Shown here in pieces: positions 38,194-51,002 of a DNA stretch of 64,000 nt. Source of the DNA: a phage. The stretch lies in sequence record PZ445488.1, one strand, 5' to 3'. Below the pieces are notes generated by a model that was not told where the DNA came from, did no database searches, and saw only the letters and a list, made by a program, of their open reading frames with translations. Within the stretch, counting starts at the first letter, position 1. Each line of letters opens with the position of its first letter. Both the position numbers and the translations under genes were made by a program.

Positions 38194-38523
38194 TTATACT
38201 CTAGGCTTTTGAGCTTGTTTGGTATTGGATTCCCATGCGGCTTTGGTAATTTTGTTAGCGGCATAGCCAAAGGCATTAGATAGAACACCTTTAGAGTTGA
38301 ATACATCCAATCCAATAAGTACACCTGCTGTGTTAAATTTAGGAGCAAAGTATGCATTAGTTTTAGAAAGAGCTTTTTTCAATTCAGGGTCTTGAACCAA
38401 GCCATCAAAAACGCCTTTACTATTTACTTTATATGTTACTTTGGGATTTTTACCTTCTTCGATAGCAGCTTTCTGTTCAGCAGATAATGTAACTTCAGTG
38501 ATAAATTCTTGATACATTTTCAT
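38194..38523 (-). CDS. internal-protein-like capsid-targeted protein (ipII/ipIII class)
   Basis: N-terminus MKMYQEFITE matches the T4 internal-protein capsid-targeting leader MKTYQEFIAE; adjacent to denV as in T4. Confidence 0.55.
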   Translation of the reverse strand: MKMYQEFITEVTLSAEQKAAIEEGKNPKVTYKVNSKGVFDGLVQDPELKKALSKTNAYFAPKFNTAGVLIGLDVFNSKGVLSNAFGYAANKITKAAWESNTKQAQKPRV

Positions 38524-39001: not shown

Positions 39002-39283
39002 CTATTTTTCTGAAGCGCCTGAAATATATTTTTCAAGACGTTGTTTCATTAACGAGCCGTTCTTAGCGATTTCTTCCGGTTTATCGCACATACGCAACAG
39101 TGCTTCAAGCTTAGCGATATCGCTGGTACGTTCAAATTTGCGAGTATCTATCTTACTGGCAAGTTCAGAAATACGTGCTAATAGACTTTCGGCTTCAACC
39201 AAAGCTGCACCTAGCTTAGTTGCAAATGTGTCAGTAGCTTCGTTAAGAATAGATTCTGATAAAAATTCACTATATGTTTTCAT
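39002..39283 (-). CDS. internal-protein-like capsid-targeted protein
   Basis: From ATG 39283: [20 protein letters not shown]...; the ATG overlaps the lysozyme stop (ATGA). Confidence 0.55.
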
Positions 39284-46683: not shown

Positions 46684-47187
46684 TCATTTATTTTTAATTT
46701 TGCAAATTTTTCCAGCTTCGATACATGCAGCATAGATGATGCTCTGGGCAATTTTATTGCTAGTAGACCTTGCAATCACACTAAGAACAATTTCTTTTTC
46801 TTCACCACCACAACCCCAGGACCTTTGCTCATGAGTACCTTTAACTACGGCTGAAACTTCAACAGAACGTCCGCCATCAGAAGTTTTAACATCTACAACC
46901 CAATCGCCATCTTTCTCTTCAACCTGTGGTTTATCCCAAGAAATACTAATATATGATTCACTGTCAATAGAAGTCGCCGGGTTTTTCTTTACTGTAAGGC
47001 CTTCACTTTCCAGCCATTCAATAGTATTTGCGCATAAATCAGAAGAACACCTCATCGGAAACCGGCAAGATTTTTCACCTTTAGCTGCAGTGTTATACAT
47101 CTTTTCTAAAATACGCTTTTGCACGTTTTTAAAAATAGTTTCAGCAGATTCTTCAGATTTTTTATTCAGTTCAGTGTAAAGACTCAT
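46684..47187 (-). CDS. hypothetical protein (167 aa)
   Basis: ORF track frame from ATG 47187 (AGAGGAAAAT RBS); the track start 47376 would read through the promoter and terminator. Confidence 0.5.
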   Translation of the reverse strand: MSLYTELNKKSEESAETIFKNVQKRILEKMYNTAAKGEKSCRFPMRCSSDLCANTIEWLESEGLTVKKNPATSIDSESYISISWDKPQVEEKDGDWVVDVKTSDGGRSVEVSAVVKGTHEQRSWGCGGEEKEIVLSVIARSTSNKIAQSIIYAACIEAGKICKIKNK

Positions 47188-47215: not shown

Positions 47216-47244
47216 ATAGTATCACATCTAGGGAAGAAGTAAAC
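47216..47244 (-). promoter_or_regulatory. early promoter (GTTTAC, 17 bp, TACTAT)
   Basis: Minus strand reads GTTTACttcttccctagatgtgaTACTATagatttatc. Confidence 0.5.
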
Positions 47245-47275
47245 AACTTTTTCAGTAAGTTGTAGACCCCCTAAT

Positions 47276-47291
47276 GGGGACCGAAGTCCCC
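47276..47291 (-). terminator. UUCG-tetraloop hairpin GGGGAC-UUCG-GUCCCC (terminator or stability element)
   Basis: 3' of the 47297..47923 gene; paralogous to the hairpin at 29368..29385. Confidence 0.4.
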
Positions 47292-47296
47292 ATTCT

Positions 47297-47923
47297 TTAC
47301 TTACGAGTTTTTGCATACTGAGCAGCGTCAGCAGCCAAACGACCTGCTTGTCGAAGTTTTTCTTTAATCTCATCATGAAGTGGTTGAGTATACTTCAAAC
47401 CTTCGATAGTCAAATAAAGACGATAAAGGTCTGGGGTATCAAGGTTGTTGATATGTTGGCCATTACGAAGACTATTGAATTCACGAACGAGTGAAGATGT
47501 ATCAGATTCAATATCACGAACAAGCGAAGATAGTTGTTTATATTTTTTTTCCAGGCTAGAAGTATCAAACTTAAGAGCAGGAGCTTTAGGAGTTGCTTTT
47601 ACTTCCGGCTTAGGCTCAGGTTTTGCTACTGCTTTAGGGGTCGCAGGTTTAGGAGTGGTAGGAGCAGGTTTTACTTTAGGCGAACCAGATTTAGCAGAAA
47701 CACCACCACTAACAATATCTTTGAATGCTTTAGAAGCTCTGTAATATTCTTTTTGGCTGGAAGTGTCGATACCGTACATGGCTTGAACGTTTTTGAAAAA
47801 CTCTGTACTAGTTTTTGTACCAGAAATAGCATCGTAAGCAGCTTGCCATTTCTCTTTTGTCATACGTACACCGGCTTCGGTGATTACTTCCGTTTCGGCT
47901 AAAAATTCATTAAAAGTATACAT
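47297..47923 (-). CDS. internal-protein-like capsid-targeted protein (Lys/Pro/Ala-rich)
   Basis: 208 aa; N-terminus MYTFNEFLAE resembles the T4 internal-protein leader; a late promoter lies 36 nt upstream. Confidence 0.55.
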   Translation of the reverse strand: MYTFNEFLAETEVITEAGVRMTKEKWQAAYDAISGTKTSTEFFKNVQAMYGIDTSSQKEYYRASKAFKDIVSGGVSAKSGSPKVKPAPTTPKPATPKAVAKPEPKPEVKATPKAPALKFDTSSLEKKYKQLSSLVRDIESDTSSLVREFNSLRNGQHINNLDTPDLYRLYLTIEGLKYTQPLHDEIKEKLRQAGRLAADAAQYAKTRK

Positions 47924-47958
47924 TGATGGTCCTTAGAAAGTAGGTTTATTGTTTACTA

Positions 47959-47966
47959 TATTTATA
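47959..47966 (-). promoter_or_regulatory. late promoter motif TATAAATA (minus strand)
   Basis: Exact octamer directly after the terminator and 36 nt upstream of the 47923 ATG. Confidence 0.45.
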
Positions 47967-47967
47967 C

Positions 47968-47995
47968 AAAAAAGCCCCAACCTTTCGGAAGGGGC
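47968..47995 (-). terminator. rho-independent terminator (GCCCC-UUCCGAAAGGUU-GGGGC + U7)
   Basis: GC stem followed on the minus strand by TTTTTTTG; closes the tRNA / small-RNA region. Confidence 0.6.
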
Positions 47996-48038
47996 TATAT
48001 ACCTTGTCGGGGTTTCCACCTACTAGGTAAGTGTTTGT

Positions 48039-48130
48039 ACGAAACGCCGGGATTCGAACCCGGTTATTAAGCAGTTGACGCTACTCAATATTTTTAAAAG
48101 GCCATATCTCTACCATATCCGAACGTCCCG
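48039..48130 (-). ncRNA. tRNA-like element (canonical T-arm and acceptor-like ends; cloverleaf not resolved)
   Basis: Minus strand has CCGGG-TTCGAAT-CCCGG followed by CGTTTCG, which can pair with an upstream CGGGACG, but no consistent D or anticodon arm could be folded by eye. Confidence 0.3.
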
Positions 48131-48298
48131 TCAAAAACGCTACTCGGCTTACGGCAAAGATATTTCCTCGAATCGATAATTCTGTGCGCCGTTTCTGCTG
48201 TGATGTAAGGGGATATTAACGAATCATAAAGATTTATTAAGACCAGTCCTTACTCAGGGAACATCAGTCCGACGACTTGCCGGTAGCGACCCGGCTTC

Positions 48299-48643
48299 TT
48301 ATTTTGGCATATCATCAATTTGCTCTCGACGCCGATGCCATAGATTAATCGCTTCATAAACACATTCAGCATTTGGTATATGGCGACAATAGTATAGTGA
48401 TTCGCGTTTCTGGAACCGATGTTGCAATGGGATTTCGTTTAAAAGGTCTTTACGGTCAAAGTATTCAAAACTAGTTAACCCGGAACGGTTTTTAAGAAAC
48501 TTCCAATGGCCAAATTCATTTTGGAAATAAACGTAATCAGCGTGTTGATATAATGAATTAATCAACCGGTCGGAAATAACTGTATCCTGTTCGTTAAAAT
48601 AAAACGTTAAATCATGAACTACCAGATAAATATTACCTTTCAT
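48299..48643 (-). CDS. hypothetical protein (114 aa)
   Basis: ORF track frame from ATG 48643 (GAGGAAAAT RBS); the track start overlaps tRNA-Arg. Confidence 0.45.
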   Translation of the reverse strand: MKGNIYLVVHDLTFYFNEQDTVISDRLINSLYQHADYVYFQNEFGHWKFLKNRSGLTSFEYFDRKDLLNEIPLQHRFQKRESLYYCRHIPNAECVYEAINLWHRRREQIDDMPK

Positions 48644-48661
48644 ATTTTCCTCACTTGAAGT

Positions 48662-48738
<77 letters not shown>

Positions 48739-50318: not shown

Positions 50319-50582
50319 TTAAATACCAGCTTCGCGTTTAACATAATCGACGTAAGCTTGGATAGCTTTCTTGCTGGTAATTTTTACCTGGCCTCGTCCG
50401 TTGCCTTCTTTAGAGTTTTTCTTAACAACTACATTACCATCTTTAACACCCCATACATGGACATAAGTACCGATGTTTCGGTCGTAGAACATTGCATGGT
50501 CGTTGTTGTAAGAGAATGATTCGTAGTTCTCTGACAGAGTAGAAGATTGAGATTCAGCGATAAATTCTTTATAGGTTTTCAT
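50319..50582 (-). CDS. internal-protein-like capsid-targeted protein (ipI class by position)
   Basis: 87 aa; N-terminus MKTYKEFIAE is a near-exact match to the T4 internal-protein leader; next to 57B as T4 ipI is. Confidence 0.55.
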   Translation of the reverse strand: MKTYKEFIAESQSSTLSENYESFSYNNDHAMFYDRNIGTYVHVWGVKDGNVVVKKNSKEGNGRGQVKITSKKAIQAYVDYVKREAGI

Positions 50583-50617
50583 TTGTTTTTCCGTTTGGTT
50601 GTTGATTTGATAGGACT

Positions 50618-50647
50618 ACTATAACATAGTCCTATCAGCATGTAAAC
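50618..50647 (-). promoter_or_regulatory. early promoter (GTTTAC, 18 bp, TATAGT) in palindrome GATAGGACTA/TAGTCCTATC
   Basis: Minus strand reads GTTTACatgctgataggactatgtTATAGTagtcctatc. Confidence 0.45.
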
Positions 50648-50650
50648 TAC

Positions 50651-50938
50651 TTACAGAAGAGTTTTTGCAATAATTTTAAGCTGAGCTACAGAAATATGCT
50701 TAGCTTTAAACAGTGCGGTCTCTTCGGCCGGAGAGATAACAACAGTAGCGCCATCTTTCTTAGCAGACCATCCGTCCCCTAAGTAAACAGTACCTTTTAC
50801 TTCTTCACCATCAACCAGACTAATCATCGGTTTACCCTCACGTCCTTTATTTGCTTTAATAACTTCGGAAGTAAGGGTTGCTTCGGTCAGAGTAGAAACG
50901 TTAGCAACAGGTGATATAAATTCTTTATAGGTTTTCAT
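50651..50938 (-). CDS. internal-protein-like capsid-targeted protein (second tandem copy)
   Basis: 95 aa; N-terminus MKTYKEFISP. Confidence 0.55.
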   Translation of the reverse strand: MKTYKEFISPVANVSTLTEATLTSEVIKANKGREGKPMISLVDGEEVKGTVYLGDGWSAKKDGATVVISPAEETALFKAKHISVAQLKIIAKTLL

Positions 50939-50972
50939 TTTATTTCCTTGAGGTTGTTTATTTGATAGGATG

Positions 50973-51002
50973 ATAGTATCACACCATCATCCTTATGTAA
51001 AC
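50973..51002 (-). promoter_or_regulatory. early promoter (GTTTAC, 18 bp, TACTAT) in palindrome AGGATGAT/ATCATCCT
   Basis: Minus strand reads GTTTACataaggatgatggtgtgaTACTATcatcctatc. Confidence 0.5.

Follow-up and report, generated by a model that had tools for sequence, protein, structure and literature searches.

A candidate family of CTS-bearing internal head proteins encoded behind the tRNA-rnaD-rnaC terminator of T4-type phages

What kind of protein is encoded directly behind the stable-RNA genes of a T4-type phage, and when during infection is it made? This question is raised by a 208-aa ORF in a 64,000-nucleotide stretch of phage DNA (sequence record PZ445488.1; this whole stretch is referred to as the window). 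A first-pass annotation, made from the letters of the DNA, had described the ORF as a gene for an internal-protein-like, DNA-binding product, whose late promoter abuts a terminator that insulates it from upstream early transcription. The ORF with its MYTFNEFLAE start was readily recovered, including the sequence AKPEPKPEVKATPKAPALK, and all other sequence elements listed in that annotation are likewise present where it had placed them (Table 1). The 1.8 kb around the gene share 99.9% identity with Escherichia phage CEV1 and 95-97% identity with many complete Mosigvirus (RB69-like) genomes. Judged by its DNA, which is 96-99.9% identical to Mosigvirus genomes, the source phage is a Mosigvirus-type relative of T4. 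In annotated relatives the genes are arranged in the order 4-2-3-1-57A-57B-ipI, tRNAs, 208-aa gene, frd.3-e.6-e.5 and onward to e, which corresponds to the order in T4 and thus places the 208-aa gene in the plastic, non-essential e-tRNA-ipI region. Genes 21 and 22, whose products, the protease gp21 and the scaffolding-core protein gp22, belong to the core gene set of T4-related phages (PMC9026906), lie outside the window.

Table 1. Features at the 208-aa gene (positions in the window)
Feature	Position	Strand	Remarks
CDS, 208 aa (precursor 23.2 kDa)	47297..47923	(-)	ATG ORF; phrog_2280
CTS-like leader MYTFNEFLAE, codons 1-10, ending in gp21-type site L-A-E↓T	47894..47923	(-)	by comparison with T4 IPII/IPIII
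TEVITE, codons 11-16, second gp21-type site I-T-E↓A	47876..47893	(-)	alignment; resembles IPI TITE↓A
N-terminal helical domain, residues about 17-75, pLDDT about 85	47699..47875	(-)	AlphaFold2 and alignment
Pro/Lys/Ala-rich spacer, residues about 76-117, predicted disordered	47573..47698	(-)	composition, AlphaFold2
C-terminal helical hairpin/three-helix domain, residues about 118-208, pLDDT about 85	47300..47572	(-)	AlphaFold2 and alignment
Shine-Dalgarno sequence TAAGGA	47930..47935	(-)	6 nt before ATG
T4 late-promoter box TATAAATA	47959..47966	(-)	exact; 35 nt before ATG; 23 nt spacer to TAAGGA
Intrinsic terminator, AGCCCC-internal loop/GAAA-GGGGCT, then U6	47968..47996	(-)	homologous to terminator downstream of T4 rnaC
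Homologues of T4 stable RNAs (rnaD 48183-48302, rnaC 48038-48176)	48038..48302	(-)	alignment to T4
3' stem-loop AATGGGGAC-UUCG-GUCCCCAUU	47273..47294	(-)	starts 2 nt after stop codon; no U-run
Early-type promoter TTTACT-N16-TACTAT, for next gene (46684-47187)	47216..47243	(-)	PeSL-type, with stem-loop

Comparison of the ORF with its counterpart in a relative of 96% identity revealed nine synonymous and two non-synonymous codon differences, both replacements falling into the spacer, and the length variants of the ORF (618, 624 and 630 nt) are all in-frame. Purifying selection is evident from these codon differences, and the ORF is a real, conserved gene of an RB69-like (Mosigvirus) T4-type phage. 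Searches of PHROGs yielded a single match, phrog_2280, to which no function is assigned (E 2e-58). Homologues form 18 clusters among 5.8e9 proteins and occur in 139 phage records; a profile search of 1.8e9 representatives retrieved 13 proteins, all belonging to the same family. They are restricted to T4-type phages with Enterobacterales hosts, spread over at least seven genera, and none of the database names and annotated records examined calls them anything but 'hypothetical protein'.

The clue to the kind of protein comes from its N-terminus, which resembles the capsid targeting sequence (CTS) of the T4 internal proteins (IPs). T4 IPII and IPIII both start with MKTYQEFIAE. The leader MYTFNEFLAE is identical at M1, T3, E6, F7, A9 and E10; its differences at position 4 (Y to F), position 5 and position 8 (I to L) are conservative, and residue 2 has Y in place of K. 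Targeting by the T4 CTS has been mapped mainly to positions 4 and 7 and processing to positions 8 and 10 (PMC9026906; PMC8442874), and the leader agrees with the T4 sequence at all four (F4, F7, L8, E10). The T4 CTS alone suffices to bring proteins into the prohead core, and the protease gp21 removes it (PMC8442874; PMC5694885). The gp21 motif (L/I)-x-E↓ (arrow, cleavage) is present at the leader end, as LAE↓T at residues 8-10 and as ITE↓A at residues 14-16, and at this second site the positions E15/A16 of our alignment A1 are invariant or nearly so. T4 IPI is cut at the related sequence TITE↓A (PMC9026906).

A pattern derived from these leaders, M-x-x-[FY]-x-[EDQ]-[FI]-[LIV]-x-E, is found in four ORFs of the window, in each case at the N-terminus and on the minus strand, and in none of 100 shuffled versions. 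Apart from the 208-aa ORF (47297-47923) these are 50319-50582, next to the ipI homologue, and 39002-39283 and 38194-38523, both after lysozyme gene e; the pattern ORFs sit at or near canonical IP positions. The ORF at 50319-50582 (87 aa, minus strand) starts with MKTYKEFIAE, and the leader-bearing ORF at 50651-50938 (minus strand) is a close homologue of ipI, its mature part being nearly identical to T4 IPI. The two minus-strand ORFs downstream of e (93 aa and 109 aa, respectively) occupy the positions of T4 ipIII/ipII, with sizes unlike that of IPIII; where T4 has ipIII, the source phage has only the 93-aa CTS ORF.

The loci examined include those of Dhakavirus (JS98, dhabil), Winklervirus (CBH8), Kanagawavirus (Kosakonia 305, CIP9), Tegunavirus (fHe-Yen9-01), Karamvirus (PG7) and Marfavirus (Marfa) as well as two metagenome contigs. 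The gene directly follows the tRNA cluster in the two metagenome loci and in those of Mosig-, Dhaka-, Winkler-, Karam- and Marfavirus; for Kosakonia 305, CIP9 and fHe-Yen9-01, the tRNA is more than 1 kb upstream or none is annotated in the stretch. Full-length homologues down to ~33% identity retain the leader pattern given above, with P0027, which lacks E10, as the one exception, and most of them also keep the second site as [LIV]-x-E-[AS]. In Dhakavirus the leader is the canonical MKTYNEFLNE. The proposal of an internal-protein-like product is thus supported both by the match to an experimentally defined CTS and by the retention of the leader across the family.

Other parts of the protein are exchanged. 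CIP9 (L010 1501-2127), P0023 and P0026 have the N-domain and the spacer in common and carry unrelated C-domains, and P0025 and P0027 combine the same C-domain with a different N-domain; the leader persists despite exchange of either domain. This constancy of the leader amid both sequence divergence and domain swaps argues for selection on the tag itself. RB69 (NC_004928) possesses a divergent member in the same slot (L015 9429-9991, minus strand), which starts with MKTYAEFLTE and is annotated as the overlapping ORFs 149c and 148c. Joining of the two frames gives a protein of ~187 aa that aligns with the family over 166 columns (hhalign probability 93%), and the split into ORF149c/ORF148c may reflect either a frameshift or a sequencing error. 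At two loci the slot is occupied by tandem CTS genes (L007, i.e. fHe-Yen9-01, 2080-2616; L013, 2792-3579), with the leaders MLEYSEFLKE and MDFKQFVNES; in L013 a single late box precedes both. Because of such tandem CTS genes in some genera, the post-tRNA slot looks like a hotspot for genes of injected proteins.

Which properties does the remainder of the protein have? AlphaFold2, run on a 10-sequence alignment (mean pLDDT 71), predicts two confident helical domains (residues ~20-72 and 120-206, each at pLDDT ~85) joined by a spacer that is disordered over residues 74-112 (Table 1), and the C-terminal domain is the best-conserved part (FDTSSL..LRNGQHINNLDTPDLY..YTQP). The low-complexity, basic Lys/Pro/Ala stretch noted previously corresponds to the spacer, which contains 11 P, 9 K and 8 A and has a net charge of +7. 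Among 15 homologues, the spacer varies in length between 16 and 49 residues and is always cationic (+1 to +9). The predicted mature protein (residues 17-208) has a mass of 21.3 kDa, a pI of 9.73 and a net charge of +13; it is basic, as are T4 IPI* (pI 9.0), IPII* (pI 9.6) and IPIII* (pI 9.65, net +10). One further I-K-E motif occurs at residues 186-188, inside a confidently predicted helix. The conserved cationic spacer would be compatible with DNA contact inside the head. The DNA-binding role proposed in the first-pass annotation would have to be attributed solely to this conserved Pro/Lys/Ala segment, which is perhaps a plain linker. The spacer includes SPKV, TPKP, TPKA and TPKA and no (S/T)PKK, i.e. 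no SPKK/histone-H1-like repeats, and judged by these motifs its resemblance to SPKK sequences is compositional only.

Searches with the predicted structure and with the sequence gave no match that points to a function. Foldseek gave nothing useful against the PDB (E > 2), and the matches in BFVD were uncharacterised family members only. In Pfam and NCBIfam no model scored above its cut-off; SIX1, PspC, TonB and IcmG matched weakly, the latter three for compositional reasons. The TonB model NF008084, for example, reached 17.3 bits as compared to a cut-off of 315 and covers the Pro/Lys stretch only. A TonB-like or secreted periplasmic protein was rejected on account of this score, the acidic N-terminus and the lack of a hydrophobic signal.

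Is the protein then a version of one of the T4 internal proteins? When aligned to the T4 IPs by hhalign, only the leader was matched (25 and 11 columns, with probabilities of 26% and 6%, respectively), and no similarity to IPI, IPII or IPIII was detected for the mature part. Homology to IPII/IPIII was consequently rejected beyond the leader. In its general features the product is nevertheless similar to IPIII: both possess a 10-residue CTS-type leader ending in [IL]-A-E, are of comparable size (193 aa for IPIII versus 208 aa) and mature pI (9.65 versus 9.73), and are encoded in the plastic e-tRNA-ipI region. By analogy, packaging into the core, trimming by gp21 and injection would also be expected for the 208-aa product. 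However, the similarity to IPIII does not extend past the ~25 N-terminal residues that hhalign aligned with 26% probability, and the 208-aa product has two helical domains plus a Pro/Lys/Ala spacer that is missing from the IPIII sequence. Moreover, ipIII is located downstream of gene e and has an early-type promoter, whereas the 208-aa gene resides behind the tRNA/rnaC terminator with its own TATAAATA box. With IPI the product shares a longer leader containing a second internal site (TITE↓A in IPI, ITE↓A here) and a polymorphic locus, and IPI, being injected, provides a model for an anti-defence role. In contrast, IPI* is a compact alpha/beta protein of 76 residues, whose mature part and fold are unrelated to the 208-aa product, and the true ipI homologue sits elsewhere in the window (50651-50938). 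T-even internal proteins are diverse and have the CTS as their sole common feature (PMC3012670).

We next consider how the gene is delimited at its 5' side. A G+C-rich hairpin directly followed by a U-run, as is typical for intrinsic terminators, is present at 47968-47996: the hairpin AGCCCC-UUCC-GAAA-GGUU-GGGGCU covers 47973-47996 (minus strand), the U6 run 47968-47973, and a single G separates the latter from the late box, which had correctly been described as lying immediately 3' of the terminator. The stem comprises 6 + 2 bp; the centroid fold has a free energy of -16 kcal/mol (z = -2.3), and 3 of 200 shuffled sequences were equally stable. A simple terminator scan missed the hairpin because of its internal loop. 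Alignment of window positions 48304 to 47964 with T4 positions 71173 to 70825 revealed 88% identity over 352 bp, spanning rnaD, rnaC, their trailer and the terminator hairpin with its U-run; the homology to T4 stops inside the TATAAATA box. Thus, the AGCCCC..GAAA..GGGGCT hairpin and the U-run are common to both phages. In T4, however, a spacer of ~150 nt and then the e.8 early promoter come after the terminator, and a counterpart of the 208-aa gene is missing, whereas in the window only 1 nt separates the U-run from the late box. Since T4 has the same hairpin after rnaC and yet lacks the gene, the hairpin represents the conserved end of the tRNA-rnaD-rnaC unit. For the view that the terminator insulates the gene, this means that a hairpin with U6 does lie directly upstream, but that it is no dedicated insulator, since it is the rnaC-unit terminator conserved in T4. 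As read from this alignment, the late box and the gene are placed directly behind the rnaC-unit terminator.

Some further features of this unit are worth recording. The 300 nt upstream of the gene matched no Rfam family, and the stretch was identified by alignment to T4 rnaD/rnaC; because no Rfam family matches, a curated model seems to be lacking for these 'species 1 and species 2' RNAs. The rnaC homologue carries a tRNA-like T-arm (CCGGGTTCGAATCCCGG). A 115-aa ORF (48299-48646, minus strand; phrog_3355, function unassigned) separates tRNA-Arg (48662-48738) from the 5' end of rnaD, its stop codon abutting rnaD; T4 has no ORF here, rnaD following directly after tRNA-Arg.

When is the gene expressed? 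T4 late promoters consist of a -10 box without a -35 element, located a short distance upstream of the gene, and require gp55, gp33, gp45 and replication for their activity. The window is AT-rich and contains the sequence TATAAATA eight times, with 7.4 occurrences expected, i.e. at chance level; the significance of the box therefore derives from its conserved position. In 12 of 12 loci, which are orthologous or syntenic and come from different genera, a NATAAATA box, whose first letter is T, G, C or A, precedes the start codon of the CTS gene by 24-38 nt, and in most of them a G+C hairpin occurs no more than 45 nt upstream of this box. No sigma-70-like or MotA-type (TGCTT) element was found in the stretch that separates the terminator from the ATG. 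These features suggest that the 208-aa gene would be expressed strictly late. An alternative is that expression is not confined to the late phase and that read-through from the strong tRNA/stable-RNA unit or from promoters farther upstream adds early or middle expression. T4 ipI, ipII and ipIII and the other IP genes of the window do have early-type promoters directly upstream and no late boxes, the terminator hairpin is only moderately stable and broken by its internal loop, and in RB69 the late box is ~55 nt away from the terminator. However, the hairpin and its U6 run lie immediately upstream here, early and middle promoter consensus sequences are absent between hairpin and ATG, and in most genera examined the late box is directly preceded by a hairpin, which makes such leaky expression rather unlikely. 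Because the canonical T4 IP genes use early-type promoters, a late-only internal-protein gene would be a regulatory variant. Searches of the accessible literature for Mosigvirus, fHe-Yen9-01 and AV110 found neither transcript data nor virion proteomics for members of the family.

At its 3' side the gene is bounded by a stem-loop and an early-type promoter. Cassettes composed of a stem-loop and an early promoter, termed PeSL, have reportedly been described for T4-type phages by Arbiol in 2010 and Comeau in 2014. As in these cassettes, the 3' boundary of the 208-aa gene is formed by a stem-loop that is followed by TTTACT-N16-TACTAT. PeSL cassettes flank exchangeable ORFs in hyperplastic regions, and the 208-aa gene is absent from T4 and divergent in RB69. 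Unlike them, it has neither the 17-nt spacer of the consensus TTTACW-N17-TAYWAT (PMC4122927), the spacer being 16 nt here, nor an early promoter at its 5' boundary, which is provided by the terminator and the late box. In BLAST searches the early-promoter stretch 3' of the gene matches other T4 promoter regions. A stem-loop follows right after the stop codon in 10 of the 11 other loci, the exception being fHe-Yen9-01 with a second CTS gene directly next, and an early-type promoter follows the stem-loop in nine of these ten, including RB69 and excluding PG7. In terms of its sequence layout, the gene forms a late cassette of its own, with the rnaC-unit terminator on one side and a PeSL-type element on the other.

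We propose that the product represents a hitherto unannotated family of T4-type internal head proteins that are targeted to the capsid, processed by gp21 and injected, a reading to which we assign a probability of roughly 75%. In this model, the phage-modified RNA polymerase would initiate late at TATAAATA behind the rnaC-unit terminator, producing a short, essentially monocistronic mRNA that ends at the UUCG stem-loop. MYTFNEFLAE would take the 208-aa precursor into the prohead core, as suggested by its identity at the mapped motif positions and its conservation in the family, and the prohead protease gp21 would cut after E10 (LAE↓T) and/or E16 (ITE↓A). The basic mature protein of ~21 kDa (pI 9.7, net +13) would then be retained amid the DNA of the head, its Pro/Lys/Ala spacer, rich in lysine, likely lying against phosphates, and would be injected together with the DNA. 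Within the host, the helical domains would most plausibly hit a host target, in line with an anti-defence role for which IPI* sets the precedent and which has likewise been proposed for IPIII.

How do other explanations compare? The product could be a late protein that works in the cytoplasm or in association with assembly and is not kept in the virion, such as a late regulator or a scaffold-like core component that is degraded or expelled at maturation, in which case the CTS-like leader would be a relic or merely a transient core-binding tag. The C-domain is indeed a long helical hairpin, as occurs in scaffolding and coiled-coil proteins, and the protein has the extra I-K-E motif at residues 186-188. 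T4 core proteins, however, are cleaved to short fragments (PMC5694885), and the 208-aa product has just this one internal [LI]xE beyond its leader, within a confident helix. Furthermore, few features are as constant as the leader in this family, which otherwise diverges and swaps domains, and the basic pI resembles that of the retained IPs. We therefore regard a non-retained protein as improbable.

A more serious possibility, though one we hold to be the lesser, is that the protein is packaged and acts mainly in a structural or electrostatic manner, as a histone-like counter-ion or DNA condenser without a specific host target. Lysines of T4 internal proteins touch DNA phosphates in the head (PMC3012670), the mature protein has a net charge of +13, and all 15 homologues retain a cationic spacer although its sequence drifts freely. 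On the other hand, conservation is strongest in the helical C-domain and not in the spacer, whose length and charge vary widely (16 to 49 residues, +1 to +9), strict SPKK motifs are absent, with SPKV, TPKP and TPKA as the only similar ones, and Pro/Lys/Ala stretches also serve as plain extended linkers. Exchange of N- and C-domains between phages is what would be expected of host-directed effectors. Among T4 internal proteins, IPI* blocks GmrSD (PMC3012670) and IPIII is required for infecting ECOR17; these precedents, together with the domain exchanges, favour a host-directed, i.e. anti-defence, function for the injected protein.

Very probably, the gene represents a never-annotated family of a known protein kind rather than something fundamentally new: polymorphic CTS proteins are established in T-even phages (PMC3012670, PMC9026906, PMC4122927), and the family is therefore best seen as an unannotated addition to this class. 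Its unusual traits would be modest, namely the two-domain modular build with a cationic spacer and the dedicated late cassette behind the terminator of the tRNA operon. More speculatively, and at about the same low degree of confidence as the purely electrostatic role, these traits may define a modular chassis for injected effectors, in which the CTS leader and a cationic tether carry interchangeable helical domains. Expressed from a late cassette in a fixed slot, such cargo could be swapped between T4-type genera, and even within Mosigvirus between RB69 and CEV1/JS09, against the first-line defences of different hosts, and the protein might functionally replace IPIII in phages without an IPIII homologue.

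Of all phage proteins, the internal proteins enter the host cytoplasm first, and the two with known phenotypes, IPI* (GmrSD) and IPIII (ECOR17), both affect host range. The family described here is a ready candidate for a new anti-defence factor. Its carriers comprise many coliphages that are candidates for therapeutic use (Mosigvirus, Dhakavirus) as well as phages of Enterobacter, Klebsiella, Serratia and Yersinia. The conserved layout, in which a terminator is followed by a late box, a CTS gene and a stem-loop, may serve as a simple rule to find more injected proteins in T4-type genomes, and the leader could enlarge the CTS toolbox for loading foreign proteins into T4 heads.

Inspection of the canonical IP genes revealed an additional feature of their early-type promoters. 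In five cases, two in the window (50608-50637 and 50967-50993) and three in T4, at ipI, ipII and ipIII (L002; 3756-3791, 4460-4483 and 11901-11930), the -10 box lies in, or overlaps, the loop and the 3' arm of a perfect or near-perfect inverted repeat of 8-14 bp. The 208-aa gene has no such repeat at its promoter. At the canonical IP genes, the repeat may serve as an operator, form a cruciform or be a 5' element of the RNA.
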